Of a stretch of 64,000 nt of DNA, positions 5,270-61,993 are shown one piece after another. The position numbers and the translations under genes are program-made. The notes under the pieces are model-generated. The model saw nothing but the letters and a program-made list of their open reading frames with translations. It did not search any database and had not been told where the DNA came from. The DNA comes from Deltaproteobacteria bacterium (GTDB lineage: Bacteria; Myxococcota_A; Polyangia; Polyangiales; Houyiibacteriaceae), in the NCBI GenBank assembly GCA_034670305.1, contig JAXMNT010000017.1:32001-96000 (forward strand), given 5' to 3'. Within the stretch, counting starts at the first letter, position 1. Every line of letters begins with the position of its first letter.

Positions 5270-5568
5270 CCGGCGTCGGATTCGGCATCGGGATCGGCTT
5301 CGGGATCGGGATCGGCTTCGGGATCGGATTCGGGGTCGGATTCGGGATCGGCTTCGGGGTCGGATTCGGCGTCGGCTTCGGGATCGGATTCGGGATCGGA
5401 TTCGGGATCGGATTCGGGATCGGATTCGGGATCGGGATCGGATTCGGGATCGGGATCGGGATCGGCTGATCCAAGGGCAAGGGCAGGGGCAAGGGCAGGG
5501 GCAAGGGCTGCACTCAAGGGCAGGGGCAAGGGCAAGGGCAAGGGAAGGTCTGCCCGCAAGGGCAAGGG
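5270..5568. repeat. Hexamer tract A: (NTCGGN)n 5270-5466 plus (GGGCAR)n arm 5472-5568
   Basis: Direct reading; lies between the stop at 5256 and the start at 5579. Confidence 0.95.
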
Positions 5569-5578
5569 CCGCTTCGCC

Positions 5579-6628
5579 GTGTCAGACTCGCGCATGCCCG
5601 CGGTGCCTCCCGGCTGCGATCCCGAATCGATCGTGCTCACGTTCTCCGTTGCGCGCGAGCACGCGGGGTTGCGGCTCGATCGGTTCCTGCAGATCAAGAT
5701 CCCCCGCCTCTCGCGGACCCGGGCGAACGCCATCGTGAAGGCGTGTGCGCACCACCCAGACGGGCGCCGCCGCCGTGCGAGCGAGCGGGTGCGGGCCGGG
5801 GAGACGGTGATGATCATCCGCCCGCCGATGGACGAACCGCCGACGCCGCAGTTCTACAAGGTGCTCTACGAGGACGAGGATGTGCTCGTCGTCGACAAGC
5901 CAAGCGGTTTGCCCATGCACCCGACGGCGACCTACCACCGCAACACGCTCTCGCACTTGCTGGCCGAGGACTTCGGCGATCATCCGCCGCAGTTCGCGCA
6001 TCGGCTGGACCGCGAGACGAGCGGCATCGTGGTGTGCGCCAAACACCGGGCGGGCGAGATCGAGATGAAAAAAGCGTTCGAGCGGCGCGAGGTCGGCAAG
6101 CGGTATCTGGCGATCGTGCGCGGAGATCTTCAGCCGAGCGAAGGCACCATCGACGCGCCGATGGCCTCCGCGGACGAAGGCCCGCACGTCTGTATGGCTG
6201 TGCACGAGGACGGGGTGCCGGCCGTGACCGAGTACCGGGTACTCGAACGCAAACCCGGCGCGGCGCTCATCGATCTGCATCCCGAGACCGGGCGGCAACA
6301 TCAACTCCGGGTGCATCTGGCCCACCGAGGCTGCCCGATCATCGGCGACAAACTCTACGGTCCGGACCGGCACCAGCCCTTCCTCGATCTCATCGAAGAG
6401 GGGTGGACCGACGCGACCTTGAAGCGGCTCGGGCACCCGCGGCATGCGCTGCACGCCGCGCATCTGGAGATCTTGCACCCCCGCACCGGCGCGCTGCTTT
6501 CGGTCGATGCGCCGCTGCCCTGGGACCTGCAGCAGTTGTGGGAGAACCCGGCCGCGGCCCTCGACGGCGCAGCGGTCTGCCAGCCCGAAGACCTCCTGGT
6601 GCACCCAGCCGTTCGCACGGAAGCATGA
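5579..6628 (+). CDS. RluA-family RNA pseudouridine synthase (RluC/RluD-like)
   Basis: S4-like RLDRFL; VDKPSGLPMHP; catalytic HRLDRETSG; TGRQHQLRVH; GDKLYG; LHA. Confidence 0.95.
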   Translation: MSDSRMPAVPPGCDPESIVLTFSVAREHAGLRLDRFLQIKIPRLSRTRANAIVKACAHHPDGRRRRASERVRAGETVMIIRPPMDEPPTPQFYKVLYEDEDVLVVDKPSGLPMHPTATYHRNTLSHLLAEDFGDHPPQFAHRLDRETSGIVVCAKHRAGEIEMKKAFERREVGKRYLAIVRGDLQPSEGTIDAPMASADEGPHVCMAVHEDGVPAVTEYRVLERKPGAALIDLHPETGRQHQLRVHLAHRGCPIIGDKLYGPDRHQPFLDLIEEGWTDATLKRLGHPRHALHAAHLEILHPRTGALLSVDAPLPWDLQQLWENPAAALDGAAVCQPEDLLVHPAVRTEA

Positions 6629-6682
6629 GCCCTGCGGAAGCCGGGCGGACACCGTGGGGGAGTGCTGCTACAACGCGCGTCG

Positions 6683-7267
6683 ATGCGTTCGATTGGAAGT
6701 TGTCTCCTCGTCCTCTGTCTCTTTCACTGCGGTGGGAGCGCCCCTGCCGAGGTCGTCGGCTCGCCGCTGACCGCAGAGGACATCCAGTACTTCGAGGACG
6801 GGATCGATCTCGTCGAAGACCCTGAATCGCTCGAAGGGGAGTGGCGCCGACAGTGGTCGACCGAGCTCGACCAGCGGGTCCAGCGCGCCGACGTGGTCGC
6901 GTACGTGCGGGTGCGGACCGTGCGCACGGACACCGACCTCGACCGCCGGACCACCTATCGGATCCTGGTCGAGAGCGAGCGCGATCTGGTCGGTGAGTTG
7001 CCCGAGGAGGGTGTCGAGCTGCGTTCGCGCGAAGGCGAGGTGGGCTTTGGCACCATCGACGGGAACGAACAGCGCATTCTCGAGAAGCCATTCGTCCTGT
7101 TCCTCAAATGGGACCGCCCCACCGGCGCGGCCACCGCGACCCCACGCTTTCATCTCTCGCCGCACGTCGAGCAGGTCACCACCCGAACCGAGTACCTCCT
7201 GGAACGCCGCCGCGACGTGCACACCCGCCCACAGGGCACGGTGATCGTCCACACCCAGAGCGACTGA
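6683..7267 (+). CDS. Hypothetical exported protein / lipoprotein
   Basis: MRSIGSCLLVLCLFHCGG signal; coding-like composition. Confidence 0.7.
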   Translation: MRSIGSCLLVLCLFHCGGSAPAEVVGSPLTAEDIQYFEDGIDLVEDPESLEGEWRRQWSTELDQRVQRADVVAYVRVRTVRTDTDLDRRTTYRILVESERDLVGELPEEGVELRSREGEVGFGTIDGNEQRILEKPFVLFLKWDRPTGAATATPRFHLSPHVEQVTTRTEYLLERRRDVHTRPQGTVIVHTQSD

Positions 7268-7377
7268 ACGGCTTGCCAGGACGGGCCTGCGCCGCTGGGT
7301 GTGCGTGGCCTTGAGGGGGTTCTCCCTCTGATAAGAAGTTTGAAACTTGGGGCGCGGACGGGCATCTTGGCTACCAG

Positions 7378-8490: not shown

Positions 8491-8642
8491 CGGGCGCCAG
8501 CAGACTGTTTGCACAGGCTGCAGCGGTTGTGAGCCCCCGGCAGTGCAACGGCAGCGTGGCGGACAACCTGTGGAAGATCGCGACGCGGGCAACGAACCCA
8601 AACCGACTGACCGGCCCAACGCGCCTCCCACGTGGCGCGCTT

Positions 8643-9320: not shown

Positions 9321-9401
9321 GGATGAGACGGGACAACCTGCGCGCAAAGCATACACTATGCTTGGCCAGCAGATGTTCGATGAACCTGGAGTGTGGTGGT
9401 G

Positions 9402-9950: not shown

Positions 9951-9953
9951 ACG

Positions 9954-12191: not shown

Positions 12192-12204
12192 CGCGGAGCC
12201 ACCG

Positions 12205-12522: not shown

Positions 12523-12583
12523 AGAGCGCCAGCTGCGCTGACGCTTTGAGGGGAAGCGGCGGCCGACGCTGTGGCAGGCGGCC

Positions 12584-12770
12584 GCCGGTGCCGAAGCCGA
12601 TGCCGGTGCCGGTGCCGAAGCCGGTGCCGGTGCCGAAGCCGGTGCCGGTGCCGAAGCCGTAGCCGAAGCCGAAGCCGTAGCCGATGCCGATGCCGAAGCC
12701 GATGCCGAAGCCGATGCCGAAGCCGAAGCCGGTGCCGATGCCGATGCCGAAGCCGATGCCGGTACCGATG
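12584..12770. repeat. Hexamer tract B: (GCCGAA/GCCGAT/GCCGGT)n
   Basis: Direct reading; between convergent stops 12522 and 12784. Confidence 0.95.
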
Positions 12771-12783
12771 GCTCAGGTTCCGT

Positions 12784-14256
12784 TCAGGAGTCCTTCCACG
12801 CAGTGTGGAGCCGGAACGGGAGGTGGTTCGGCATCGCGCACCGCGCGCGGGTCTCCAGGGTGCGGGCGTCGGTCACGGCGACGAAGGTCTCGTGGGTGCG
12901 CGCGTCGTAGACGTGGGTGAGCAGCCAGCCGGCGTCTTCGTCCGTGCCGAGGGCGGCGTCGGGGACGAACGTCGGCTGGCCGAGGAAGGTGTCGCGCCCG
13001 AAGTCGACCATCGACGATTGGTTGCGCTCTACGTCGTACTTGGCGAGGCGGTCCTGCATGCCGCGGGTCGTCGCTTCGATGTCTTGGTGCGCGGCGAGGT
13101 AGACGTATCGGTGAGACGCGCCAGCGACGGCGGGATGGATCTCCGGGAAGTCGCAGGGGTGGTTCCAGAGCGTCTCGAACGCGACCTCTCCGGCTTGAAT
13201 CGTCGCCCGGGTGAGCGCACCCCAGCACTCGAAGAGCGGCTCGCCGGTGTAGACGCGCCGAAGCCACTCGTTGCTGCCGAAGTTCGGGTAGCGGCAGAAG
13301 TCGATCACGATCTGGCCCCCGTGCTCGAACGCGTTCGCGAAGTGCCACTGGTAGAACGGCTCACACCGGAAACGGGTCTGGCGCTCGGGGGCGTCGATCG
13401 GGACGATGACGACTTCGGTCCCGCGCTCGGGTTCCCACGCCAGGCTCTCGTCGAACCCGGACAGACCGAGCAGCGCCGGGAGCAGCCGCAAGCGCAGCGG
13501 TGAGATGAAGAAGATCAGGTGGTCTTGGGTCGCGGCGAAGTCGTGCACCATGCCGAGCGGAGAGACCGGCACGCCGCCGAAACGGCGGGGCGGCAGGGCG
13601 GGGTCGTCCGGGAGTTCGAACAGATCGAGCACGCTCTTCGGTCCCGGGCAGATGCCAAAATTGTAGGCGGCCTTTCGTGCGGGCACGTGGTGCGGGTGGG
13701 CGGAGAACCCCATGCGCACGACGTCGTCGAAGGCGCCGGTCCCGATCGTCTCGAGCGTGACCGGATCGATCTCGGTGGGCAGGCCCGCTTCCCACAACGC
13801 GAACAGTCGGCCGCCCCGGACCATCATCGCCGTGTTCGCCACGTTCTTGCCGCGCTTGCCCGGCGCCCGGAAGAACAGGGACGCATCGAACCGGCGCCGG
13901 TACCCGCCGTAGATCATCCGTCCTGCGGTTTGTTCCGCGCGCAGCCCAGCGCTCTGCACCAGCCGCACGGCCCCATGCGCGGCTCCGTCTCCGAAGTGGA
14001 CGGCGCTGACCGCGCCATCCCCGTCGAACCAGTGCGCGTACGACTCTCCGAACAAGCGGGTCTTGCTCGGGCCTGTCGCGTAGAGCGCGCCCCGCAAGCT
14101 GGGCGGCACCGAACCTTCGATGCGCAGGGGCAGCGGCCCGTGTTCGACCTCGAGGGACTCGAAGGCGCGCCGACAGCGGAGGCGCTGCGGCGCGTGCCGG
14201 TCTGCGGACGCCCCGAGGACGCGCGCAATGCTGCTCGAGCTGGTCGACCCATCCAT
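12784..14256 (-). CDS. Carotenoid oxygenase (RPE65/CCD/lignostilbene dioxygenase family)
   Basis: HWFDGDG; NVANT; ALWEAG; four Fe-ligand His motifs FSAHP, MVHDF, WHFANAFE, LH near the C-terminus. Confidence 0.93.
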   Translation of the reverse strand: MDGSTSSSSIARVLGASADRHAPQRLRCRRAFESLEVEHGPLPLRIEGSVPPSLRGALYATGPSKTRLFGESYAHWFDGDGAVSAVHFGDGAAHGAVRLVQSAGLRAEQTAGRMIYGGYRRRFDASLFFRAPGKRGKNVANTAMMVRGGRLFALWEAGLPTEIDPVTLETIGTGAFDDVVRMGFSAHPHHVPARKAAYNFGICPGPKSVLDLFELPDDPALPPRRFGGVPVSPLGMVHDFAATQDHLIFFISPLRLRLLPALLGLSGFDESLAWEPERGTEVVIVPIDAPERQTRFRCEPFYQWHFANAFEHGGQIVIDFCRYPNFGSNEWLRRVYTGEPLFECWGALTRATIQAGEVAFETLWNHPCDFPEIHPAVAGASHRYVYLAAHQDIEATTRGMQDRLAKYDVERNQSSMVDFGRDTFLGQPTFVPDAALGTDEDAGWLLTHVYDARTHETFVAVTDARTLETRARCAMPNHLPFRLHTAWKDS

Positions 14257-14384
14257 GTGCCGAGGGTGCCAGACGTCGGGGTTCGGATCGATGGCTCGGA
14301 AGGTCCGGCCTCGAATCCGGTGGAACAAGCGCCGGATCGACCGCGCTCGGATCGACGCCGCCGGGTTTTGCGGTAGTCCACTGG

Positions 14385-15116: not shown

Positions 15117-15120
15117 AACG

Positions 15121-16653
15121 ATGACGTTGCCGCTTTGCACCCGCGCTCAGTCGACCGCCTTCGACGCCGCCGCGATCGACGCCGGCGTGCCCGGCATCGT
15201 GTTGATGGAGAACGCCGGCCGGGGCGCCGCGGAAGTGGTGCGCGCGGAGCTCGATCGGTTGCCGGCGGGCAGACACGAAGTCGTGTGCATCGGTGGCACC
15301 GGCAACAACGGCGGCGACGCGTGGGTGGTGGCGCGGCATCTGGTGCGGCAGCAACTGAAGGTGCGGGCGATCCTCGTTGGTTCGAGCTCGGCGCTCACCG
15401 GCGATGCGTCGATCGCGTTCGAGGCCCTGCGTGCGGTCGGCGTCGAGGTGCGCGAAGTGGCGCCTGGTCCCATCCCACTCGACGGCGCGTCGCTGATCGT
15501 CGACGGCCTCTTCGGCACCGGCCTCTCGCGTCCGATCGAAGGCGGCTTCGCGGAGGTGGTGGAGTCGATCGTCCGGGCGGCTGGAGACGGGACGCACGTC
15601 GTGGCGCTGGATCTCCCGAGCGGCGTCGACGCCGACACCGGTCAGGTGCTCGGGGTCGCCGTGCGCGCCGACTGCACCGTGACCTTCGCGGCGCGCAAAC
15701 GTGGCCTCACCCAATACCCGGGACGCGCGCTCGCCGGCCGCGTGGTCGTGGCCGACATCGGTGTGCCCGCGCCCATCGTCGACCAAGCCTCGATCATCGA
15801 GGACAGCGATCTGATGCGCTGGGTCCCGGCGCGTGCCGCCGACGCCCACAAAGGCATCGCGGGTCGGGTGCTCGTCGCGGGGGGCAGCCCAGGCAAAACC
15901 GGTGCGGGCATCCTGGCGGGGTGGGGTGCGCTTCGCGGCGGGGCCGGCCTCGTGACCATCGCGACCAAAGCGCAGGCCGCCATCGACGCGAAGGTCGTCG
16001 AGCTCATGACCCGTCCGCTCGGAAGCGCCGAAGAGCTGCTCGAGCAGATCGACCAACACGACGCCGCGGTGATCGGACCGGGTCTCGGGCTCAGCGCGAA
16101 CAGCGCCGACCGGGTGCGCGAAGCACTGACGAGTGAGACCCCATTGGTCTTGGACGCCGACGCCCTGACCCACATCGCCAAACTCGGGGAGGGCGGCTTC
16201 GCGCTCCTCAAGAACGCCACTGCGATTCGTGTACTGACGCCGCATCCGGGAGAAGCGGCACGGCTGCTCGGCACGACGTCGGCGGAAGTGCAGGCGGACC
16301 GATTCGGCGCGGCCGAGACACTGGCGCAGAAGTGCGGTCAGGTGGTGTTGCTCAAGGGCGCGGGCAGCATCGTCGTCGATCCGCGATCGGACCATTGCCG
16401 GGTCTGCGTGGCCGGCACGCCCGCGCTTGCGGTCGGAGGCACCGGCGACGTGCTCGCCGGGCTGGTGGGCGCGCTGCTCGCGTGTGGCGTGTCTGCGTAC
16501 GATGCGGCGAGCGCTGCCGCGCAGCTGTGTGCGCGCGCCGGGGAACTCGCCGCGGTGGGGGATCGGGGTGTGCGGGCGCGCGAAGTCGCCGACCGGATCC
16601 CGCACGTGCTCGCCGCGGTGTTGTCTCGGGGATCTCAGGCGGCGGCGACGTAG
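15121..16653 (+). CDS. nnr: Bifunctional NAD(P)H-hydrate epimerase/dehydratase
   Basis: LMENAG, GNNGGD, DGLFGTG, DLPSG (YjeF-N); HKG, LDADAL, LTPHPGE, GGTGDVLAG (NnrD). Confidence 0.95.
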   Translation: MTLPLCTRAQSTAFDAAAIDAGVPGIVLMENAGRGAAEVVRAELDRLPAGRHEVVCIGGTGNNGGDAWVVARHLVRQQLKVRAILVGSSSALTGDASIAFEALRAVGVEVREVAPGPIPLDGASLIVDGLFGTGLSRPIEGGFAEVVESIVRAAGDGTHVVALDLPSGVDADTGQVLGVAVRADCTVTFAARKRGLTQYPGRALAGRVVVADIGVPAPIVDQASIIEDSDLMRWVPARAADAHKGIAGRVLVAGGSPGKTGAGILAGWGALRGGAGLVTIATKAQAAIDAKVVELMTRPLGSAEELLEQIDQHDAAVIGPGLGLSANSADRVREALTSETPLVLDADALTHIAKLGEGGFALLKNATAIRVLTPHPGEAARLLGTTSAEVQADRFGAAETLAQKCGQVVLLKGAGSIVVDPRSDHCRVCVAGTPALAVGGTGDVLAGLVGALLACGVSAYDAASAAAQLCARAGELAAVGDRGVRAREVADRIPHVLAAVLSRGSQAAAT

Positions 16654-17270
16654 CCTTCCTGCTCGGCGTAGTCGCGGAGCTTGGCGGAGAGCGCGCGGCG
16701 CCCGCGGTGCAGCCGGGACATCACGGTGCCCACCGGACAGCCAATGGCGTCCGCGGCTTCTTTGTAGGAGCGGCCCTGGAGGTCGACCATCACGACGACC
16801 TGGCGGAAGGCATCCGGCAGGTCTTCCAGCGCGCATTTGACCTCGTCCCCGACCAGGGCGAGCGCCGGACGTTTGGCTTCGAGGCTGGCCTCTCCGCGGG
16901 ACCAGTGCGGATCGCGGACGGTTTCGACCCGGACCTGGGCGAGGATCTCGCGTTCGCGCTTCTTGCGGCGGTAGCCGTTGACGAAGGTGTTGAAGAGGAT
17001 CCGGTGCATCCAAGCGCGGGCGTTGGTGCCTTCTTCGAAGCGGTCCCAGAAGGCCCAGGCGCGGGTCATGGCTTCTTGGAGGACGTCGTCGGCGTCCGAG
17101 CGACTGCGCGTGAGCCGCACCGCGGCGCCGTAGAGTTCGTCGAGGTAGGGGCTCACCGCCGCCTGGAACTCGGCGCGGGTGCGCTCGGCGGAGCGGGGGG
17201 TGTCGGTCTGGGGGCGCTGGGTCTGGGGGCGCTGGGTGCGCGCTTGGGGTGACTGGCTCGAATCGGTCAT
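16635..17270 (-). CDS. ECF sigma-70 factor
   Basis: DADDVLQE, FEEGTNARAWMHRILFN, SYKEAADAIGCPVGTVMSRLHRGR; 3' end overlaps the nnr 3' end. Confidence 0.93.
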   Translation of the reverse strand: MTDSSQSPQARTQRPQTQRPQTDTPRSAERTRAEFQAAVSPYLDELYGAAVRLTRSRSDADDVLQEAMTRAWAFWDRFEEGTNARAWMHRILFNTFVNGYRRKKREREILAQVRVETVRDPHWSRGEASLEAKRPALALVGDEVKCALEDLPDAFRQVVVMVDLQGRSYKEAADAIGCPVGTVMSRLHRGRRALSAKLRDYAEQEGYVAAA

Positions 17271-17556: not shown

Positions 17557-17750
17557 CCCTTGCCCGTGCCCTTGCCCGTGCCCTTGTCCTTGGTTCTCGT
17601 GCGGGGCCGGTTTCCCGAAGCCGAAGCCGATGCCGATGCCGATGCCGAAGCCGATGCCGATGCCGAAGCCCAAAGCCGAAGCCCGAAGCCCGAAGCCGAA
17701 GACGAAGCCAGGACGGCGGGCAAGGGCACGGGCACGGGCACGGGCAAGGG
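17557..17750. repeat. Composite tract C: (CCCKTG)5 arm, (GCCGAW)n core, (CAMGGG)5 arm forming 30-bp inverted repeats
   Basis: 17557-17586 is the reverse complement of 17721-17750 at 29 of 30 positions. Confidence 0.93.
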
Positions 17751-17793
17751 TCCTACCAGGGGCCTCTTCGTGGTCCCTGGTAGGATGCGCGGC

Positions 17794-18856: not shown

Positions 18857-18894
18857 TCAATCCCCGGTTTTCCGACCGAATAGGAGCGACAAAG

Positions 18895-21873: not shown

Positions 21874-22071
21874 GCCGAAGCCGAAGCCGAAGCCGAAGCC
21901 GACGCCGAAGCCGAAGCCGAAGCCGAAGCCGAATCCGAATCCGAAGCCGAATCCGAATCCGAATCCGAATCCGAAGCCGAATCCGAAGCCGAAGCCGAAT
22001 CCGAAGCCGAAGCCGAATCCGAAGCCGAAGCCGAATGCGAATCCGAAGCCCGAAGCCGAGCCGAAGCCGAC
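21874..22071. repeat. Hexamer tract D: (GCCGAA/TCCGAA)n
   Basis: Direct reading; just downstream of lgt. Confidence 0.95.
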
Positions 22072-25523: not shown

Positions 25524-26450
25524 ATGGATCCCAACGTCCCCACCGCGAGCAGTCTGGGCCGCGCGCTGCTGCGGTTGTCGCACGCCCGTGCCACCGGCAC
25601 GCTCGAGGTACGCGGTGGGCGGTTTCGTCGTGGGGGGCGTCGAGCCCGCTTCGTGCTGCACTCCGGACGTGCGGTCGCGGTGGACCTACCGGGCGTCGCG
25701 CCGCTCCATGAGTTCGTGGACATGGATCTCGACGCGCACCGGTCGATGCTTCCTGAACTCGAGGGGCGGGCGGGTCCCATCGGGCAGCGGCTCGTACGCG
25801 GTGGACTCTTGCCTGCGGCTGGGCTCACCCACGCACTGCGGCGGCAGATGCGTGCGCGGACGATCGAAGTGTTCTCTTGGCCGGTCGCCGAGTTCGCCTT
25901 TGCGCCGATCGCCGCGGCGGTGCCCACCATCGATCGGCCGATGTCGATCGGCGACCTGGTCGCGTTCGCTTGTCGCGGATCTCTGCGGGTGCCCAGCGTG
26001 GTGCGCCGTCGACTCGAGCGGGCCACGTTTGGACTGACCGACCGGGGACGGCACGCGCTCGCGGAGTCGGCGCTCTACCCAGAAGAGATGGCCATGCACC
26101 AGGTGCTCACCGCGCAACCGATGTTGGGCGAGTCCCTGCTCTCGGTGGGCGGCGGCGCGCAGCGTGCGGAGACCGCCCTCTACGGATGGAGTCTCGTCGG
26201 CATCGTGCGCGAGCGGTCGGTCGAGACGAGCAGCCACCGGACGCTCCTGCGCAAGCGCCGCCAACTCGGCCAGGCGGACGCACGCGGCCTGCTGGAGCTG
26301 GATCAGACGACCGGACGCAGCGCCCGCCAGAACCTCACCCGCCTCCTCTGCGACGTACACCCCGACAAGTTCGGCCCCGACCTCCAGCGCAGCTCCGGCG
26401 AGGTCGTCCAGGCGCTTCTGCGCGCCGAACGAGACCTGCGAGAGAAGTAG
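25524..26450 (+). CDS. DUF4388-like domain protein with degenerate J-domain (HPD)
   Basis: [14 protein letters not shown] pattern; [12 protein letters not shown]-terminal LLEL..VHPDKF. Confidence 0.7.
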
Positions 26451-26469
26451 CGCGCCGCGCTTCGGGCGG

Positions 26470-26747
26470 GTTCGGCCTCGCTCGGCTTCGGCTTCGCTCG
26501 GCTTCGGCTTCGCTCGGCTTCGGCCCCGAACCACGGGCACGGGCACGGGCACGGGAACCGCGCAGCCTCTCCTTCGGATTCGGCTTCGGATTCGGCTTGG
26601 GGCTCGGCTTCGGCTTCGGGATCGGGATCGGGATCGGCTTCGGGATCGGCTTCGGGATCGCCTTCGGGATCGGCATCGGGATCGGCATCGGGATCGGCCT
26701 CGGGATCGGCTCCGGGATCGGCCTCGGCTTCGGCTTCGGCTTCGGCG
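26470..26747. repeat. Hexamer tract E: (TTCGGC/ATCGGG)n with internal (CACGGG)4 at 26532-26555
   Basis: Direct reading; between convergent stops 26450 and 26832. Confidence 0.95.
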
Positions 26748-26763: not shown

Positions 26764-26796
26764 AGAAAACCCCCGAGCCAAACCGGCGCGGGGGTT
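26764..26796 (-). terminator. Intrinsic terminator of the minus-strand operon
   Basis: Minus strand AACCCCCG...CGGGGGTT followed by TTCT. Confidence 0.7.
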
Positions 26797-43096: not shown

Positions 43097-44107
43097 GTGC
43101 TGGGGCTGATGTGCGTGGCGTGTTCGCCCGCCGAGGTCCGTCGCGGCCGCCGATCCATGTCGGAAGGTCACTTCGAGGATGCGGCGCGACACTACGCACT
43201 GGCGGCCGCCGACGAACCGAACAACGCCGCCCGGTGGCGCGACCTGGCCCGCGCGGAACTCCTGGCCGAGCGTCCGATCCATGCACGCCGTGCGTTCCGC
43301 CGACTCGCCCGACTGCGCCCGAACGACCCGCGGCCGGTCGTGGAGATCGGGTTCACCCAAGAGCTCGAGCGCGACTACGACCAGGCGCTGGCCACGTACC
43401 TGGAAGCGGTCGTCGTCGATCCCGAAGACGCCTATCCGTACCGCGTGCTCGGAACGCGGCTGTTGCGCTGGGGCAAGGCGGACGAAGCGATCGAACCACT
43501 CGCGCGCTCGGTGGAGATCGATCCTTCCCACCCGGAGACCTGGAAAGCGCTTGGGCTGGCGCACCATGCGGCGGGCCAACCAGAGGCGAGTGAGTCCGCG
43601 TTCCGCGCCGGACTCGAACACCATCCATCGGACCTCGGACTCAACTTGAGTCTCGCGGCGTTGCTCATCAACGCGGGCCGGTTCGAGCCCGCGCTCGAGA
43701 TCTACGATCGGTTGATCGAAGGGCTGCCGCGGTTCGCTGCAGCGCACGTCGGTCGTTCGCTCATTCTCCACGAACTCGGACGAGAGAACGAAGCGGAGGC
43801 GGCGCTCATCCGTGCGGTGGCGGTGGCGGACGATCCGGCGCGCTACGAGCGGCGGCTCGAGGCGTACCGGGCGTTGAGGCGGCGGGGCGTTCGGGCGCGC
43901 CGGGTGGGGCGCGACGGGGGCGGAGCCGGTGCCGAAGCCGAAGCCGAAGCCGAAGCCGAAGCCGAAGCCGACGCCGATGCCGAAGCCGAGGCCGATGCCG
44001 AAGCCGAAGCCGAAGCCGATGCCGATGCCGAGGCCGATGCCGAAGCCGATGCCGAAGCCGATGCCGAAGCCGATGCGGAAGCCGGTGCCGAGGCCGACGG
44101 GACCTAG
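43097..44107 (+). CDS. TPR-repeat lipoprotein with in-frame (AE/AD)n tail (start uncertain, 43043-43109)
   Basis: LMCVAC lipobox; multiple TPRs ([16 protein letters not shown]). Confidence 0.8.
43925..44098. repeat. Hexamer tract F: (GCCGAN)n inside the 3' end of the TPR gene
   Basis: Direct reading; at a convergent junction. Confidence 0.95.
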
Positions 44108-50531: not shown

Positions 50532-53170
50532 CCGACGCCAAGAAACGTCGACCGTCGCGCACCCCACGCCCGGTGGATCCGCCGAGTCGACCCGCGCGTC
50601 GAAAGCTTCGGCCACGCAGTCGTCCGACCCGCACGTCGCTCATCGGTGAGTTTCTCGAACACCGCACCGTTCGCTTGCTCGTGGCTTCGCTCATCGTCGT
50701 CTCGCTGCTTCCTTATCCGGAGCTCGAACGACTGCTCCGCCCATGGCTCTTGGTCGCGTTCGGCGCCGAGGTGGTGCTTCGATTCACCCGGCTGGCAATC
50801 GAGAAGGCCAAGGAGCGGAGCGACTGGCTCTACCTCTGCATCGACGTGCTCGCGTGGACGAGCTTCTTGCCGCTCGAGCATCTGCTCGGCGTCGACGCGA
50901 CCTGGGTCCGCGGGCTGCGCCTGGTCCGGCTGCTCGTGCTCATCCGGTTCACGCGGTACCTCGCGCAGGACGTCTGGCGCGTGCTCACTCGGCGCGAACA
51001 GCTCCAACAGCTCGGGCTCGTCACGACGTCCGTACTGGCGCTCTCGTTCTTCTCTGCGGTGGTGATGAACCACATCCTGCCCGACGACCCGACCGTGCAG
51101 GGCAGCTTCTGGGATCAGATGTGGTGGAGCTTTCGCCAAGTCGAGAGCCCGGACAACCTCATCGCCCACCTCGATGCGCATCCGCTCGTGGTCATCCTCT
51201 CGCTCGGTCTGACCATCACAGGCATCTTTGTCTTCTCGTACCTCATCGGTGTGGGCACGACCGTGGTGGAGCTCGTGCTGCGGGCCGAGCGTCGCCGGCC
51301 GGTGCCGTACCACGGGCACACGCTCGTCATCGGTCCGATGTACGAGAGCGAGCTGCTCGTCCGCGAGTTCGTGCGCATCCACGAGAAGAACCGCGCGCTG
51401 CGCCGCATCTCGCCGGCGGACCTGTGGCGCTGGCTCACCCACCGGCACCACCCGACCCCGCGGCGGCACGCGCTCCCGCAGATGGCGCTGCTCGGGCCCG
51501 AGGTGGAGCCGCCGCCGTATCTCTACGAACCCGAGATGCGCTGGGTCGTCTACCGGCAGGGCGACGGCGTCGAGGCCGAAAGTCTCGACCTCGTGGGCGC
51601 GACGGACAGCAAACGCGCCATCTTGCTGGCGCCACCCTCCAATGCGCACGACCCGGACGCGATCACACTCTCGCGGCTGAGCGCCATCCGCACCATCAAC
51701 CCCGATGCGCATGTCTTCGTCGAGGTCACCCGCAGCGAGAACGAAGGCGTCGTGCGGGCGGTCGGCGGCGTCGGCACGTTTCCGCTCGATGCGAGCCGGC
51801 TCGTCGGACTGTTCCTTTGCCACCACTTGCTCGTGCCGGGCGTCGACCGACTCTTCGAAGAACTGCTCAGTGCGCGCGGCCACGAGATCTACACCCACCT
51901 CTACGTCGACAGCTGGGAGCACCGCGCCCTGGATCTTCGCGCGTCCAAGGAAGGAACTGGGGGGACCGTCTCGTTCCAGGCGCTCCAGCGCTTCGCTCAG
52001 GAGCGACACCACGTCACCCTGCTCGGTGTGTTCCTCGGCGATCGCATCGACCGCAAGCAACGCGATCTCATCCCGGTCGACCTGCTCGACGCCTGGGTCA
52101 ACCCGCTCGCGGCAGCCGAGGCAGAGGGCGCGTCGGCCGCCGGTCGCATCCCGGTCGAGCGACTGCAGGGCATCTTCGGCATCGCCGACACCTACGTACC
52201 GCTGCGCGCGTCGGGCCGCGAGGTCCTCGAGTCCGACCTCGGTGCGCCCACTTCCGGTGACCTCCATGCTGCCAAAGCGGTGGTCGACTCGATCGATCGC
52301 GAAGTCGATCCACCGATGGAACGCATCGTGGTGGTTGGGTACGGACACGCGCTGCCCGCGTTGGTGGATGCGCTCGCGCACTTCGTCCCCGGGGTGTCGG
52401 TACACGTCGTGCTGTGTGGCGACTCGCCCGACGCGGCGCGCTGGCTCCGCAAGTGCGGCATCCCCAAAGCCGGCGGCCGCTGCGCGATCGAGGGCGGCGG
52501 CACGCTTGCGATCGAACGCTGTGAGCGTGACGAACTCTCCGAGGTCGCGGCCGAGCGGGCTGCCGTCGCAGACGCGGCGGTCTTTCTTGCAGATGCGGGT
52601 GCGACCGACAGCGACGCGACCGTCTCGATGCGGGTGCTGCGGTTCGCCAACGCGCTGCGCCGCGGTTCGGAGAAGACCACGGAGATCGAACTCTGGCCCG
52701 ACGACCGGGAGCGTGCGCAAGACCGCACTGCGATGCCGCTGCGACTGCTGGTCGAACTCGACTCCCGCCACCGCGGCGCGCAACTCGAAGGGCATCTCGG
52801 CGGGGGCATGTCCCAGGCGGAGACCGAGCTCGTCCTCGTCAGCACCGACCAGATCAAGAACTACTTCATGGTGCACAGCGCGTTCGTGCCCGGCGTCACG
52901 TCGATCTACGAACGGCTGCTGGGAAGCCGCGGTCAGGAAATCGTGCGCCTGCCCGTCGCCTGGCTGCCCGACTCCCACGAGTCGTTCACGTTCGGGGGAC
53001 TGCGCGCCGCGCTCGCCGGGCGTGGCTGCATCCCGATCGCGCTCTCTCTCGACGGCGAACTGCTTGTGAACCCACCGTGCGCCCGGCCGCTGAAACGCGC
53101 GGACCTCGAAGCCATCTACGCCGTCGCCGACATGGACTCCCTCGACGAGATCTTCCCCGCGCAGTCCTGA
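50528..53170 (+). CDS. 6-TM ion channel: voltage-sensor-like S1-S4, CASTOR/POLLUX-like pore, tandem RCK-like domains
   Basis: AEVVLRF (S2), CIDVL (S3), RGLRLVRLLVLIRFTR (S4), WWSFRQVESPDN pore, GHTLVIG and RIVVVGY RCK starts, FEELLSARGHEIY, LLVNPP. Confidence 0.8.
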   Translation: MTDAKKRRPSRTPRPVDPPSRPARRKLRPRSRPTRTSLIGEFLEHRTVRLLVASLIVVSLLPYPELERLLRPWLLVAFGAEVVLRFTRLAIEKAKERSDWLYLCIDVLAWTSFLPLEHLLGVDATWVRGLRLVRLLVLIRFTRYLAQDVWRVLTRREQLQQLGLVTTSVLALSFFSAVVMNHILPDDPTVQGSFWDQMWWSFRQVESPDNLIAHLDAHPLVVILSLGLTITGIFVFSYLIGVGTTVVELVLRAERRRPVPYHGHTLVIGPMYESELLVREFVRIHEKNRALRRISPADLWRWLTHRHHPTPRRHALPQMALLGPEVEPPPYLYEPEMRWVVYRQGDGVEAESLDLVGATDSKRAILLAPPSNAHDPDAITLSRLSAIRTINPDAHVFVEVTRSENEGVVRAVGGVGTFPLDASRLVGLFLCHHLLVPGVDRLFEELLSARGHEIYTHLYVDSWEHRALDLRASKEGTGGTVSFQALQRFAQERHHVTLLGVFLGDRIDRKQRDLIPVDLLDAWVNPLAAAEAEGASAAGRIPVERLQGIFGIADTYVPLRASGREVLESDLGAPTSGDLHAAKAVVDSIDREVDPPMERIVVVGYGHALPALVDALAHFVPGVSVHVVLCGDSPDAARWLRKCGIPKAGGRCAIEGGGTLAIERCERDELSEVAAERAAVADAAVFLADAGATDSDATVSMRVLRFANALRRGSEKTTEIELWPDDRERAQDRTAMPLRLLVELDSRHRGAQLEGHLGGGMSQAETELVLVSTDQIKNYFMVHSAFVPGVTSIYERLLGSRGQEIVRLPVAWLPDSHESFTFGGLRAALAGRGCIPIALSLDGELLVNPPCARPLKRADLEAIYAVADMDSLDEIFPAQS

Positions 53171-53254
53171 CTTCTGCTTCTGCTTCTGCTTCTGCTTCTG
53201 CTTCTGCTTCTGCTTCTGCTTCTGCTTCTGCTTCTGCTTCTGCTTCTGCTTCTG
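53171..53254. repeat. Hexamer tract G: perfect (CTTCTG)14
   Basis: Starts immediately after the TGA at 53170; convergent junction. Confidence 0.97.
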
Positions 53255-53264
53255 CGGGCCAGGG

Positions 53265-54917
53265 TCAGCGCCGGGGTCGCGTGCGCGGGCTTCGAGGGCT
53301 GCGGCGCACGGGCGGCACCGCCAGACTCAACGTCGCGACGTCGATCCGTTCGGTGCCGGCGGCGACTTGCAGCGCGACCTCCACCTGGGCCGGGACGTCG
53401 ATGCTGGTGCCGATGGTGACGCGGAACCGCCCGTCCGGGTGGCGGAGGATGGAGCCAACCGCGACGCCGGGCGGGGCCCGCGCGACGAGTCGGTCGGGGA
53501 GCCGGAGCGGGCTGCGGATGCGCAGGGTGAGCTCGCGCCTCCCGCCGCGGCGGAGCACCGGCCGACCGACGACGCGGGCTTGGGCGCGCATGACGAGCAC
53601 GTCGAAGCCAGGGATGTCGCGGTCGCTCGAGTCGATGCAGCGAATCGACTGACGCCCGAGGCCGCGCACGGTGGTGATGCCTTCGAGCGCCGCGTTCTCC
53701 CGGGACGAGACGCCGCAGCGCAGGCCGAGGGGAGAGACGAGCCAGGTGCCCGGCAACACCCGCACCGGTTCGTAGGGCCGGGTGGGATCGCCCGGATCGA
53801 ACGAGTCCGGCGGTGGGTCGCCGCCGCCGGGCGGCACGATGCGGGCTTCGCGGATCACCATCGCGCGGCGGGGGGAAGGGCGCCCTTCGAAGAAGGCACT
53901 GTCGATGGTGGACACCCGCACGTAGTAGGCGCCCGCTGGAAGGCGGGCGATCTCGAAGCCGGTCGCGTCGCCCGGCACCTCGATCGCCGCGACGAGCTCG
54001 GAGCCATCCGCTTCCGCCGACACCTCCACCCGATAGGCGCGCGCCCCCTCGACCGCATGCCACTGGCCGCGCAGCGTGCCGCCGCTGCCGGTCACGCCTA
54101 CGAACCGGCCGCTTCGGTCGTCCCGCCAGCGTGGCGCGCGGGGCAAGGGCCGCGGCGGCGTGGGACGCCGGCCCGCCGTGACGGTGGTGCCGCTGCCTTC
54201 GGGCAACTGCAACCGTCCGCGGTCGCCCGTCACGAAGAGCGAACCGCCGAGGTTGGCGACGCGGGTCGTGTCCTCGTCGACCTGGACGATCGCTTCACCG
54301 CCGACGTCGGCGCGCGCGGAGTCGGTCTGCACGGCGAGCCCACCCGCGAGTTCCCCGAGCCGGCCCCGCAGTGCGCCCCGTTGAAGTCGCGCGACGCGCC
54401 GGGGACGTGCGGACGACCCGCCGCCGCCGACCACGACCACGAGCGAGCGGTCGCGCATCTGGAGTCGCGACCCATCGCGGTACAGGAGCTCGGCCGCCGA
54501 GTGTTCGCCGGTGGCGACTTGGTTGCCTTCGTCGAGTCCATCGCCGCGCCGCGCGCGTCTCCAAGCGTCGGCGGCCGCGCGACGCAGTTCCACCTCGTGC
54601 ACCACCCGCGCCATCGACGCCTCGTGCGAGGCCCGTTCCCGCGAGGGCAACACGAGCGTCGTGCCTTCTTGCAGCCGATGGGGCGTCGGCCCGAGCCACC
54701 GGTTGTACGCGTGGATGACATCGATTCGGGCGCGGTCGCCGTACACTGCGCGCGCGATGCTTCGGCACGAGTCGCCCGGCTGCACGACGTAGCGCAGGTC
54801 CTCGTCCGCATGCGCGTTCGGAGCCCTCAGCACGCACAGCCAGCCCACCAGCATCCACCACCGCAGCTTCGTGCGTTGCCCGGCGCGAGGCGGCCGACGC
54901 GCGAACGCGCCCCTCAA
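53265..54917 (-). CDS. Exported LysM-FecR-FN3-like protein
   Basis: Signal ending AHA; YVVQPGDSCRSIARAVYG LysM; VATGEHSAAELLYRDGS FecR; WHAVEGARAYRVEVS FN3; TTG start overlaps the kinase stop. Confidence 0.85.
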   Translation of the reverse strand: MRGAFARRPPRAGQRTKLRWWMLVGWLCVLRAPNAHADEDLRYVVQPGDSCRSIARAVYGDRARIDVIHAYNRWLGPTPHRLQEGTTLVLPSRERASHEASMARVVHEVELRRAAADAWRRARRGDGLDEGNQVATGEHSAAELLYRDGSRLQMRDRSLVVVVGGGGSSARPRRVARLQRGALRGRLGELAGGLAVQTDSARADVGGEAIVQVDEDTTRVANLGGSLFVTGDRGRLQLPEGSGTTVTAGRRPTPPRPLPRAPRWRDDRSGRFVGVTGSGGTLRGQWHAVEGARAYRVEVSAEADGSELVAAIEVPGDATGFEIARLPAGAYYVRVSTIDSAFFEGRPSPRRAMVIREARIVPPGGGDPPPDSFDPGDPTRPYEPVRVLPGTWLVSPLGLRCGVSSRENAALEGITTVRGLGRQSIRCIDSSDRDIPGFDVLVMRAQARVVGRPVLRRGGRRELTLRIRSPLRLPDRLVARAPPGVAVGSILRHPDGRFRVTIGTSIDVPAQVEVALQVAAGTERIDVATLSLAVPPVRRSPRSPRTRPRR

Positions 54918-57939: not shown

Positions 57940-57987
57940 GTCGCTCCTGGGGGCACTCGGCACGGTCCGCAGTGTAAGGTCTATCGC

Positions 57988-59280: not shown

Positions 59281-59522
59281 GCCGTCGCAAGATCGATTGG
59301 GGCAAGCACCCGGTGGCGTCGGTGGTGGTTTGGATCCTGACCGCGGCGTGTGTGATCGGCCTGCTGTACACCGCGACGCATCTGGACGAGTTGCCCACGC
59401 GACGTCCGGGGGGAGGGCGCGGCAAGAACCACCTTGCCGCGCTGATGTTCGTCTTCTGCCCGGTGGTGCTGGCGGTCACGTGGGGCATCTTCCTGCGCAA
59501 CTTCCGAGGTCCGCCCCGCTGA
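59277..59522 (+). CDS. Small two-TM membrane protein
   Basis: ATGA overlap with the activator stop; two hydrophobic segments in 81 aa. Confidence 0.65.
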
Positions 59523-59526
59523 GGAC

Positions 59527-59698
59527 TCCGACGCCGAAGCCGACGCCGAAGCCGACGCCGAAGCCGACGCCGAAGCCGACGCCGACGCCGAATCCGAAGC
59601 CGACTCCGACGCCGAAGCCGACGCCGAAGCCGACGCCGAAGCCGACGCCGAATCCGAAGCCGACTCCGAAGGCGACGCCGACGCCGACTCCGAAGCCG
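59527..59698. repeat. Hexamer tract H: (GCCGAA/GCCGAC/TCCGAA)n
   Basis: Direct reading; convergent junction. Confidence 0.95.
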
Positions 59699-59710
59699 GG
59701 GCCGTGTCCT

Positions 59711-61675
59711 TCACTCCGGGATGAGCTCCTGTCCGGCGGCGCAGGCGATCTCCACCCCGGTCGGGCCGGTGTCGGTGCGGAGGATCTTGACCTCCACGCG
59801 GCGGTTGGCCTCCCACGCGGTCGCGTTGTGGCGCGGGTCGGTTGGGCACCGCTCGCCGTAGCCTGCGCTGCGCAGCCGACCACCCGCGACGCCGCGCTGA
59901 ATGAGTGCTTCGCGGACCGCGGCGGCGCGGTCTCGGGTGAGCTGGATGTTGTACTCGTCGTCGCCACGCTCGTCGGCGTGTCCCTGGATCTCGACCAATT
60001 CCACTTCGGTGTGGCCGGTCATGGCCGCGGTGATCGCGTCGAGCACGGGGTAGCTCCGCTCCTGGATGCGGGCGCTGTCGGTGTCGAAGTAGATCTTCTC
60101 CAGCAAGATGAACCCGCCGGTCTCGTGCCGCAGCAGCCCCACATCCGGGCAGCCGTCTTCGTCCTCGAAGTTGTTGTACTCCTCGGGGTCGAGCGGGCAG
60201 TTGTCGTTCACGTCGAGGATGCGGTCGTTGTCGTTGTCCGGGTCTGGACAGCCGTCGTCGTCCTGGAAGTCGTCGGGGTCCTCGGGGTCGTTCGGGCACA
60301 TGTCGTCGCGGTCGAAGATGCCGTCGCGGTCGTTGTCGTCGTCCGGGCAGCCGTCCTCGTCCTGGAAGCCGTCGCGGTCTTCGGGGTCGTCCGGACACTC
60401 ATCGACTTCGTCGAGCAGCCCGTCGCCGTCGCGGTCGCCGGATTCGCCCTCCGGGCATCCGTCTTCGTCGGCGTCGCCGTCGCGGTCTTCGGGGACGAGT
60501 GGGCACTCGTCGTCGTCGTCGAGAATGCCGTCGCGGTCGTTGTCCGGATCGGGGCACCCATCGGGGTCGGCGAAGTTGTCGAAGTCCTCGGGTTCGTCTG
60601 GGCACTCGTCGACGTCGTCCTTGTAGCCGTCGCCGTCGCGGTCCCCGATCGACGGTTCGAAGACGAACCCGACGGTGCCGCGCCACTGCGCTGCCGAGAG
60701 CCCGTCGGTCAGCCCGAGGCCGCCGCCGATCTGCAGGAACGAAGAGTGCTGCACGAAGATCTTCAGTCCCACCAGCGCTTCCACCGAGAGCGCGCCTTCT
60801 TGTCCGAACGCGGTGACGATCTGCGTGCCGTAGCTCTCGAGCACGACCTCCAGCCCGTCCGTAGCGCGCACGCCGATGCCCGCGCCAAACGTCAGCTCGT
60901 CGTCGTAGGTGAGGTCTTCGCCCACGCCCGGAACGAACATGGCCGAAGTCGCGTTGGTGCCGGTGGGTTCGGTGCGTCCGCCGACGCGCACGGTGCTGCC
61001 TTCGCCGAGCACGGCCCGGTATCCGACGTTGCCCACGAGTCGCACGCGGCGGTGCGGGCGCCACTCGAGCACGATCTCAGGCCAGATGCCCACGCCCGGT
61101 GCGCCCGCGAAGTTGCGCTCCGCCCCGCTCGGCAACTGCAGCCGCACGATGGCCGCGAGCCCGATCGGATCCCGCTCCGGGCGGAGCAGCCGCACCTTGC
61201 CGTGCAGGACGAAGTCCCCGATGCCCTGTTGGCTGAGCCCGCCGACGTCTGGGCCGACGTTGTACTGACCGGGCACCTCCACCGCTGGGCCGCCCACCAC
61301 CGCGATGGGAAGTTGGGCACCGACGACCAGCCGGTTCGCGAGCCCGAGGTCCACGTGCAACGTGCCGGTGATCGAGTGATCGATCAGGTGCGAACGGCGC
61401 GACGCGTTGCCGGCCATCGCTCGGTCGTCGTTCGAGAACCCGTCGAACGGCACGATGCCGAAGCCGCCGTCCAAGACGAGGCCGAAGCTCACGTCGGTGT
61501 GGCCGAGGATGTCGGCGCCGTTGAGGGTGAGCAGGCCCTTCGAGTCCAGTGCCGGCCGGAACAGCCGCAGGTCCATGCCGCCGCCTTGCAGCTGGGCATC
61601 GGCGGAGGTGGGCCAGAAGAGGAGGGTCAGGGCCGCGCAGAGGAGACGAAAGCGTGGTTGCATGCCCTCGTGCAT
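59711..61675 (-). CDS. OmpA-family protein: beta-barrel, thrombospondin type-3 repeats, OmpA_C (TraB-like architecture)
   Basis: Signal peptide; DRDGDG..D.CP..PED.D.F.D.DGCPD repeats; IQGHAD, NRRVE. Confidence 0.93.
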
Positions 61676-61773
61676 CGCAACGGACGTGCCGCACAGAAAC
61701 CGGCGCGGCGTCCGCCCGGTCGTCGTGCCCGCACCACCGCCTGTCGTCTACAAGCGACAACACCCAGCGCGCA

Positions 61774-61993
61774 TCGGCTTCGGCGTCGGCGTCGGTTTCG
61801 CCCTCGGCTTCGGCTTCGGCTTCGGCTTCGGGATCGGCTTCAGCTTCAGCTTCAGCTTCGGCTTCGGCTTCGGCTTCGGCTTCGGGATCGGCTTCGGGAT
61901 CGGCTTCAGCTTCGGCTTCGGCTTCGGGATCGGCTTCAGCTTCGGCTTCGGCTTCGGATTCGGCGTCGGCGTCGGCCTCGCTTCGGCGTCGGC
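61774..61993. repeat. Hexamer tract I: (TTCGGC/TTCAGC/ATCGGC)n
   Basis: Direct reading; just downstream of apaG. Confidence 0.95.

Follow-up and report, generated by a model that had tools for sequence, protein, structure and literature searches.

CCGA-core hexamer arrays behind genes in a Polyangiales genome: a probable slippage bloom filtered by selection

Introduction

The 64-kb stretch of DNA considered here (the window, G000:C17:32001-96000) comes from a deltaproteobacterium of the order Polyangiales and carries nine tracts of tandem hexamers built on a CCGA core (TCGG on the other strand), most of them located just behind genes. The genome to which it belongs (G000), a metagenome-assembled genome (MAG) of 7.93 Mb in 105 contigs with 68% G+C, contains several hundred arrays of the same family. 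It is probable that these arrays represent a genome-wide, motif-biased bloom of replication slippage filtered by selection. The proposal is built on what can be read directly from the genome, namely the family itself, the positions of its members, a reading-frame filter, local duplication, a link with GC skew and the lack of a conserved flank for most arrays.

According to this proposal, the hexamer arrays would arise and enlarge in place via slippage or small local duplications during DNA replication, in a process that would favor N-CCGA-N units and be asymmetric between the two replication strands. Hairpins of the TCGG strand, held by G-T/G-U pairs, and G-runs capable of forming G-quadruplexes would, when carried by the nascent lagging strand, define the expansion-prone orientation. 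Selection would then sort the survivors. Arrays would be tolerated right after stop codons, most of all where genes converge, as well as in protein linkers or tails when the frame reads Ala, Ser or Thr with Glu or Asp, and they would be lost from promoters, operon interiors and the other frames.

A genome-wide family with a fixed core

Tandem Repeats Finder recovers all nine hexamer tracts of the window, near 5.3, 12.6, 17.6, 21.9, 26.5, 43.9, 53.2, 59.5 and 61.8 kb, mostly with 0% indels and 73-100% matches, where an earlier note on this DNA had placed them. The pattern (CCGANN)3CCGA has 134 matches in the window and 0 in each of 100 dinucleotide-preserving shuffles. In the whole genome, the same program finds 857 period-6 arrays of at least 48 bp, the canonical units being AAGCCG (equivalent to GCCGAA, 419 arrays), AAGCGG (78), ATCGGC (72), ACGCCG (58), AGCGGC (31), AAGGGC (30) and ACGGGC (20). 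Merging gives 791 arrays that occupy 128,588 bp, or 1.6% of the genome. When a CCGA-core array is defined by the presence of CCGA in at least 60% of the units, 527 of the 791 qualify, with a median length of 173 bp (about 29 units) and a maximum of 490 bp, lengths above about 300 bp being rare; the remaining 264 use other units. The view that the window tracts belong to one family therefore holds at the genome scale. Searched as a (CCGANN)-type pattern, the family yields 9,647 matches vs 359 for the reversed control.

The most frequent of the 13,277 intergenic units are GCCGAA (33%), GCCGAC (16%), GCCGAT (13%), TCCGAA (5%) and CCCGAA (4%). Entropy is 0.61-0.78 bits at the C-C-G-A positions vs 1.21 and 1.72 bits at the two flanking positions, in agreement with the 6-bp period, fixed core and two variable positions that the earlier note had described.

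Signs of growth in place

Within tracts, the identity between units stands at 0.30 for lag 1 and 0.33 for lag 2, and by lag 10 it has dropped to 0.22, the same as in a within-tract shuffle; between tracts it is 0.154, so that each tract indeed has its own mosaic. Moreover, the best-scoring period is 12-48 nt, that is, of higher order, in 165 of the 527 CCGA tracts. The 40 nt on either side of 524 tracts contain no conserved position, and neither terminal repeats nor a flank consensus were found. A similarity of at least 80 nt to another tract flank is seen for 124 of 1,582 flanks, and the other 1,458 (92%) have none. The decay of unit identity, the higher-order periods and the mostly unique flanks are marks of in-place growth. 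As a separate observation, one paralogous family of small genes precedes ten of the tracts (flanks for example at C1:195967, C31:71240, C46:58330, C68:35541 and C8:37523, given as contig and position): the tract comes after the gene's 3' end and its GC hairpin, and DNA identity is 82-96% over 150 nt.

Orientation of the arrays follows GC skew

Orientation tracks GC skew on the scale of replicores. The CCGA strand coincides with the locally G-rich strand in 265 of 388 tracts (p = 4.5e-13; skew taken over 25 kb with tracts masked, |skew| > 0.01), and in 63-75% of tracts for all the segment sizes and thresholds tried. At the level of contigs, skew and tract orientation are correlated with a Spearman rho of 0.75 (p = 9e-7, 32 contigs with at least 4 intergenic tracts), whereas for the share of genes on each strand rho reaches 0.17 only. 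The bias is present at convergent (84/124), tandem (114/166) and divergent (30/38) junctions, and at tandem junctions it is followed in either gene direction (42/72 and 72/94). It is gone in tracts embedded in open reading frames (ORFs; 20/39), where the frame dictates the strand.

Besides the CCGA arrays, the genome contains 57 G-run arrays (GGGCAA/GGGCAC), all with at least four G-runs. The G-runs are carried by the C-rich strand in 35 of 45 arrays, and 26 of 29 adjacent pairs of the two array types show the polarity 5'-(TCGGNN)n-(GGGCAM)m-3'. Concerning the CCGA arrays, folding predictions make the (GCCGAA)n RNA far less structured than its shuffles (-9.5 vs -29.5 kcal/mol per 120 nt), and have the TCGG strand pair through G-U. 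The serial C(UUCG)G motifs to which the earlier note had drawn attention on this strand do occur in the sequence, but a special stability is not supported, (UUCGGC)n being predicted at -42.9 kcal/mol vs -40.7 +/- 4.9 for shuffles.

The leading strand of bacterial chromosomes is usually G-rich, which is assumed to be true of G000 as well. Structure-prone repeats, for example CNG triplets in E. coli and yeast, expand when the hairpin-forming strand is the nascent lagging strand. If the leading strand is G-rich, both structure-prone strands of the present arrays would be nascent lagging strands. We infer that the mechanism is slippage, with the G-rich strand leading and with hairpins and G-runs on the nascent lagging strand making this orientation prone to expansion.

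A reading-frame filter within genes

Among the 61 CCGA-core tracts located within ORF calls, 41 encode Ala-Glu/Asp repeats, 10 Ala-Ser, 5 Glu-Thr, 2 Leu-Arg and 3 other pairs. The Pro-Lys and Phe-Gly readings occur in 0 of the 61, though all six frames of the tracts are open. In a strict set of internal tracts (coding score of at least 10, with at least 150 nt of gene on each side), small/acidic frames are used in 22 of 23 cases. The genes are real, as Pfam domains flank the tract or are split by it. They include a DEAD/DUF3516 helicase, a PlsB-type acyltransferase, a RecD-like helicase, a CcoN-CcoO fusion, a MacB-type permease, a TonB-Plug protein and a polyunsaturated fatty acid (PUFA)-synthase-like protein.

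The DEAD/DUF3516 helicase was compared with its relatives. An orthologue was found in 4 of the 5 related genomes searched, and each aligns with residues 3-534 and 706-1018 of the G000 protein on adjacent DNA. This makes the 176 residues 534-709 of G000, in which (Ala-Thr), (Ala-Glu/Asp) and (Ser-Asp) repeats succeed one another, an insertion in this genome. Tracts in ORFs use GAA far more than GAG, opposite to the codon bias of the genome, and their unit spectrum is the same as that of the intergenic tracts. It follows that a DNA process writes the peptide, and not the reverse.

Occurrence in related genomes

The survey of relatives covered 40 genomes of the same order and an even sample of 200 further Myxococcota genomes (241 genomes including G000), none of them of the same genus. 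The nearest lgt genes, with a top identity of 75%, belong to MAGs labelled Polyangiales, Polyangiaceae, Sandaracinaceae or Myxococcota. In the same order, G012 (1,094 matches), G032 (1,480; another family) and G017 (623) are rich in the pattern, which is absent or rare in most of the others. In the wider sample, heavy loads are found in scattered families (G178, 7,894 matches; G151, 2,108; G192, 1,219; G166, 651), and 109 of 201 genomes have 0 matches. In low-load genomes, (CCGAGC)n makes up several of the listed matches and, as we read it, would encode Pro-Glu repeats.

Orthologous junctions were compared, filled versus empty, as the earlier note had envisaged. None of the 80 lgt loci of relatives (498 kb) contains a (CCGANN)4 array; downstream synteny is lost at all 80, so that no true empty site can be aligned there. 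Five tract-rich relatives were then considered for other junctions. The junction of the RPE65 gene has an array in 0 of 2 relatives, and downstream of apaG only 24-nt arrays are seen, in 2 of 5. The junction between the enoyl-CoA hydratase and tetratricopeptide repeat (TPR) genes carries arrays in 5 of 5. In G012, G013 and G024 the array continues the TPR frame as a tail (the G013 contig begins inside the array), and in G017 and G032 it is 24 nt only. Thus intergenic sites mostly lack arrays in relatives, and the only junction at which an array is kept across genera is a coding one. At this locus (window 43157-44107(+)), the orthologous TPR protein has an acidic dipeptide-repeat end in four genomes of three genera, made from GCCGAA, ACTGAG or TCGGAG hexamers: (Ala-Glu/Asp)n in G000, (Thr-Glu)n in G012, and (Ser-Glu)n in G013 and G024.

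Placement behind genes and the question of function

Genes were called with a crude codon-bias caller in which tract codons score zero and 5' ends are unreliable; 21 ORFs of the window were checked against Pfam. On this basis, 8 of the 9 window tracts adjoin the 3' end of a gene, as claimed beforehand. Five convergent placements were also claimed; three tracts are clearly convergent (26.5, 43.9 and 53.2 kb), and three further ones (12.6, 21.9 and 59.5 kb) may be convergent depending on small predicted ORFs. The tracts at 5.3 and 61.8 kb lie at tandem junctions, and the one at 17.6 kb is in a divergent gap.

Across the genome, tracts are found in 200 of 901 convergent junctions (22.2%), 282 of 3,533 tandem junctions (8.0%) and 71 of 940 divergent junctions (7.6%), which corresponds to 0.95, 0.49 and 0.23 arrays per kb of non-tract intergenic DNA. 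This ratio of about 4:2:1 tracks the number of gene 3' ends per junction. Altogether, tracts make up 8.7% of intergenic DNA. At tandem junctions, CCGA tracts lie at a median of 37 nt from the upstream stop and 129 nt from the next start; 173 of 221 are nearer to the stop and 48 nearer to the start, 10% being within 4 nt of the stop and a quarter within 12 nt. The suspected enrichment at 3' ends and convergent junctions is thus genome-wide, and the picture is not one of diverse units at random positions.

The idea that near-stop tracts are former C-terminal tails was also considered. Tracts within 60 nt of a stop have no preferred phase with the upstream frame (about 53 Pro-, 38 Arg/Ser- and 41 Ala-Glu/Asp-type of 132, a roughly even distribution); hence they are not cut-off protein tails.

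A density that scales with gene 3' ends, together with proximity to the stop, is what would also be expected of selected 3'-end elements. These would be transcribed spacers that end, insulate or stabilize transcripts, or DNA sites for a nucleoid protein that keeps convergent transcription units apart, in the manner of repetitive extragenic palindromic sequences and bacterial interspersed mosaic elements (REP/BIME). For instance, Rho could load on the unstructured GCCGAA strand, or the paired UUCGGC strand could protect transcript 3' ends. We consider such a role possible, if rather improbable. Candidates for a hairpin followed by a T-run are found at only about 16% of 3' ends, and other termination signals must therefore exist. 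In addition, the CCGA core is conserved within arrays and recurs in distant lineages, a preference for TCGG on the sense strand persists once skew is taken into account (see below), and a hexamer array has been kept at the orthologous TPR gene of four genomes, though in this case it is coding. However, the arrays behind genes occur in both orientations (131 TCGG-sense vs 90 CCGA-sense), and GC skew accounts for the orientation better than transcription does. Moreover, 83 tracts are found at divergent junctions and 96 within ORF calls, the intergenic sites are not conserved among relatives, most of which are tract-free, and (UUCGGC)n is no stabler than its shuffles. With regard to termination, which the earlier note had listed among possible functions, terminator-like hairpins are not depleted at tracts: they are found at 12% (convergent) and 19% (tandem) of the 3' ends with tracts vs 16% of those without. 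The tracts themselves lack the T-run of an intrinsic terminator, and the best terminator-like site is inside the tract at 6 of 95 tract-bearing 3' ends. Finally, for the comparably placed Xanthomonas repeats the authors were unable to identify a gene-regulation role (PMC4692102).

Function could also be sought at the level of the chromosome. The arrays and their polar G-run partners might be maintained chromosome-organization modules that manage encounters between transcription and replication, an idea to which we give somewhat less credence and hold as doubtful. They would act behind genes as strand-asymmetric, structure-forming spacers that may halt RNA polymerase, unload it or serve as a binding site for a nucleoid protein, with their orientation set by the direction of replication. 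The separate blooms in Myxococcota would then reflect one sequence solution being recruited again and again, rather than accidents of mutation.

Copied composites, candidate machineries and assembly

Copying, as opposed to growth in place, is seen for a minority of the arrays. A conserved composite consists of (CACGGG)n, then AACCGCGCATCCTCTCCTTCGGATTCGG, then a TCGG array (for example at window 26532-26583, C3:84221-84246 and C66:11418-11443). The junction CCGCRCATCCTCTCCTTCGGATTCGG between the (CACGGG)n and TCGG arrays is present in 25 dispersed copies in G000 (at most 2 mismatches), vs 0 for the reversed-pattern control. It can be asked whether the whole family was seeded in this way, by a copying or mobile process in which a composite TCGG + G-run proto-element disperses and then expands locally, the shared unit reflecting common descent. 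The strict polarity of the TCGG/G-run pairs would fit with this, as would the 372 of 1,582 flanks for which BLAST gives some similarity to the flank of another tract. Some tracts also have dispersed elements of about 100-150 nt beside them (C18:54424-54573, C22:9963-10112, C25:65503-65652), with 16-26 BLAST matches each in the genome and no Rfam match. Nevertheless, the 26-nt junction core accounts for at most about 5% of the CCGA tracts of G000, and none of 40 relatives has it, not even the tract-rich G012, G017 and G032. In addition, 92% of flanks lack long similarity to another tract flank, and neither terminal repeats nor a consensus were found. The genome has 11 Y1 transposase (PF01797) genes, with weak scores of 36-40 bits in frames of about 233-249 residues (for example C20:45721-46002 and C31:83470-83760), and only 1 of the 11 has a tract within 2 kb. 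General seeding is therefore regarded as unlikely. As an aside, the complement of the junction carries the Shine-Dalgarno-like AAGGAGAGGATG, which reads like a ribosome-binding site with an ATG; by eye, the frames downstream differ by copy, (Arg-Ala)n or (Pro-Cys)n.

Templated repeat addition, in which a reverse transcriptase (RT) or telomerase-like enzyme would copy a short RNA, was another option of the earlier note. The strict 6-nt period, the common core and the presence of three RT (RVT_1) genes in G000 could suggest it, but all three best match the PADLOC retron RT type XIII (504-517 bits), units vary within the mosaic arrays, which show local duplication and higher-order periods, the 264 arrays noted above use other units, and the arrays are internal to a bacterial chromosome rather than at DNA ends. 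No Rfam family reaches its gathering score in the window, and six tract-rich loci give sub-threshold chance matches only; no genome-wide search for a template RNA was made. This explanation is thus very improbable. The RT genes are at C23:86418-87011, C10:168437-169069 and C67:18832-19467, one of them with a CCGA array just past its stop; retrons are common in myxobacteria.

An artefact of short-read metagenome assembly is equally hard to credit. The assembly is in 105 contigs, and few tracts exceed about 300 bp, as read length would impose. Read-derived evidence came from Logan contigs (k=31) of four runs of one study, labelled plastic metagenome; no RNA run was listed. The contigs break at every tract edge compared and none bridges a tract, so that copy numbers are given as assembled. 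Yet all four runs give identical unique flanks on either side, and the contigs run about 36-53 nt into the repeats, which indicates that the tract junctions are real; the four runs are not independent, because they belong to one study that is possibly the source of the assembly. Furthermore, only 7 of the 210 contig ends of G000 touch a tract, and the tracts within genes are in frame and show up in alignments as insertions that separate conserved protein segments.

Loss of mismatch repair was examined as a cause of the bloom and rejected, as no clean link appears between the state of MutL, MutS and MutH and the tract load. MutS_V is present in 41/41 relatives. A weak MutL_C domain is found in G000 (43 bits), in the tract-rich G012, G017 and G005 and also in the tract-poor G004, G006, G014 and G023; G013 and G024 lack it, and in the tract-rich G032 it is strong (137 bits). 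NucS was not found. The MutL of G000 (C57:38881-40866, minus strand) and those of 6 of 11 aligned relatives lack the C-terminal endonuclease motifs and score 31-47 bits for MutL_C vs about 135 bits for the other five. A MutH-domain gene is present in G000 (C53:35354-35647) and in 35 of 41 genomes of the order. Judging from these sequences, the loss of the MutL motifs together with a MutH-domain gene may point to a MutH-type mismatch repair outside Gammaproteobacteria.

Weighing the slippage bloom

Several points weigh against a slippage bloom filtered by selection. First, a fixed CCGA core with variation at two positions only is not predicted by plain slippage plus neutral mutation, and the hairpin model fails to explain it because the predicted pairs involve the variable positions. 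Second, blooms of this core are scattered over lineages of several families and classes, most genomes having none, and this recurrence requires a shared bias. Third, a residual preference for TCGG on the sense strand remains at tandem junctions after skew (42/72 vs 72/94, Fisher p = 0.018), and the equation of the G-rich strand with the leading strand is an assumption in an assembly of 105 contigs. Fourth, the quarter of tandem tracts starting at most 12 nt from a stop and the 22% of convergent junctions occupied would be predicted by function likewise. Fifth, a minority of the arrays was copied as composites and not born in place, as the 26-nt junction common to 25 copies attests. It should also be noted that the gene calls are crude. 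Slippage filtered by selection leaves the CCGA core, its recurrence among lineages and the TCGG/G-run polarity without account. The earlier inference from one shared unit to a dedicated generator or a selected function is not supported.

Relation to known repeats

The arrays are best read as an extreme variant of the long-unit simple sequence repeats known in prokaryotes. They behave as microsatellites, with a short unit repeated head to tail, growth by local duplication and unique flanks, the 25-copy junction being the exception. Bacterial genomes are usually poor in long microsatellites.

REP/BIME are abundant extragenic palindromes of enterobacteria and pseudomonads that occur at 3' ends and in convergent gaps, in both orientations, with debated or multiple roles; REPs are imperfect palindromes of about 35 nt mobilized by RAYT transposases. 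The present tracts differ in being tandem, direct-repeat hexamers without dyad symmetry, their CCGA strand folds far less than shuffles, and the Y1-transposase genes are not beside them. Miniature inverted-repeat or other non-autonomous transposons do not fit, given the lack of conserved ends in the 40 nt on either side of the tracts (target-site duplications were not searched separately). CRISPR arrays do not fit either, the units being contiguous and 6 nt long instead of 25-40-nt repeats with spacers. The strand asymmetry, the foldable TCGG and G-run strands and the replication-linked orientation recall the orientation-dependent instability of CNG-type repeats. Unlike CNG triplets, the unit has 6 nt and a weak G-T/G-U hairpin, and the leading/lagging link is here drawn from GC skew.

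Closer parallels are found among heptamers. The G-rich heptamers of Xanthomonas and Nostoc (GGGAATC type) form arrays at 117-183 loci, with 4 units preferred and 89-93% of the Xanthomonas arrays intergenic. The upstream ORF is on average 28 nt away and the next ORF 160 nt away, with occasional overlap of the stop; divergent gaps and coding strands contain fewer of these arrays than expected, and no leading/lagging preference is reported (PMC4692102). Placement near 3' ends is thus already known for bacterial long-unit repeats. The G000 arrays resemble those heptamers as dispersed head-to-tail arrays of 6-7-nt units, close to stops and scarce at divergent junctions. On the other hand, the CCGA hexamer has no G-run and is not of the G-quadruplex type, to which only the 57 G-run arrays correspond; about 29 units are found vs 4, and about 790 arrays (1.6% of the genome) vs 117-183 loci. 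Orientation tracks GC skew in G000, in contrast with the lack of leading/lagging preference in the Xanthomonas arrays as described there. In addition, since the period is a multiple of three, the G000 arrays persist in genes as dipeptide repeats, unlike the Xanthomonas heptamers. Marine Beggiatoaceae are reported to have abundant intergenic direct repeats of the heptamer TAACTGA (PMC4679880), and tandem heptanucleotides of Calothrix are named in PMC4692102. What these two share with G000 is a short unit, tandemly repeated within one lineage at clearly more than a hundred intergenic sites; units, periods and lineages differ. No description of CCGA-core hexamer arrays in Myxococcota was found in the literature covered, which excluded subscription journals, and the string 'Myxococc' has 0 occurrences in PMC12699852.

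The tracts of the window and their neighbors

The first tract (5276..5459, - strand, TCGGAT/TCGGGA on the + strand) begins 20 nt past the stop of gene 4411-5256(+), upstream of an RluA-type gene (5594-6628(+)). Three window tracts are adjoined by G-run hexamer arrays (CAAGGG/CACGGG), which the earlier note had left unmentioned. Here the partner is (CAAGGG)n at 5472..5548 (+), on the same strand and 3' of the TCGG array. At 12584..12770 (+), a tract of GCCGGT/GCCGAT/GCCGAA units with an 18-nt higher order lies 14 nt from the stop of the RPE65-family gene 12784-14256(-). The tract at 17615..17709 (+; CCGAAG, with 7-nt units and 4% indels) occupies the divergent gap between an extracytoplasmic function (ECF) sigma factor gene (16635-17270(-)) and a pyridoxal phosphate (PLP)-dependent enzyme gene. 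It is bordered on its 5' side by a C-run array, (CCCTTG/CCCGTG)n at 17557..17592 (-), the complement of a G-run array, and followed by (CGGGCA)n at 17717..17750 (+), inverted relative to the former. The GCCGAA/TCCGAA tract at 21874..22070 (+) starts 41 nt past the lgt stop (21833).

The 26.5-kb tract, a single span at 26459-26746 (CTTCGG) for Tandem Repeats Finder, can be subdivided. A degenerate TCGG-type array (CGGCTT/CGCT, 26459..26524, -) begins 9 nt past the stop of gene 25680-26450(+). It is followed by a (CACGGG)4 G-run array (26532..26555) with the conserved junction AACCGCGCAGCCTCTCCTTCGGATTCGG (together 26532..26583, +), which is 1 of the 25 genome copies of the core. The CCGA-family part (26572..26746, -; CTTCGG/GATCGG on the + strand) is in the convergent gap ahead of a terminator-like hairpin of gene 26832-29423(-). 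This hairpin (26766-26795, - strand), GC-rich and followed by a T-run, is placed as an intrinsic terminator between the stop of that gene and the hexamer tract. The gene, PQQ/BamB-like, also contains 18-nt and 15-nt coding repeats at its 3' end (26858-27107), distinct from the hexamer family.

The tract at 43931..44097 (+) lies within the 3' end of the TPR gene 43157-44107(+), and is read GCC-GAA/GAT as the (Ala-Glu/Asp)n tail; the convergent enoyl-CoA hydratase gene has its stop 25 nt away. A perfect (CTTCTG)14 array (53171..53255, no strand assigned; 14.2 copies, 100% matches) is, as earlier recognized, a one-base variant of CTTCGG. It starts at the first base after the TGA of gene 50675-53170(+) and ends 9 nt before the stop of the convergent gene 53265-54854(-). 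The tract at 59528..59698 (+), with a 12-nt higher order (CCGACGCCGAAG), is 13 nt from the stop of an OmpA-family gene (59711-61675(-)). The last tract (61774..61993, -; TCGGCT/TCAGCT/GATCGG on the + strand) lies 27 nt past the apaG stop (62020, - strand) and upstream of the same OmpA-family gene. This gene has coding repeats of 99-nt period at 60144-60619, Asp-rich and, we presume, similar to thrombospondin type 3 repeats.

Significance

Tracts of this kind have practical consequences for the study of Myxococcota. They break short-read MAG assemblies, contig ends of relatives falling inside arrays, and their open frames in all six phases can mislead gene callers. For the biology of the organism, the tracts write dipeptide-repeat linkers into conserved enzymes. 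The lineage is a natural experiment on the strand dependence of repeat expansion, on the sorting of insertions by selection according to reading frame and on the birth of low-complexity protein segments from DNA slippage. If the arrays were instead functional 3'-end or insulator elements, they would constitute a new class of bacterial regulatory DNA.

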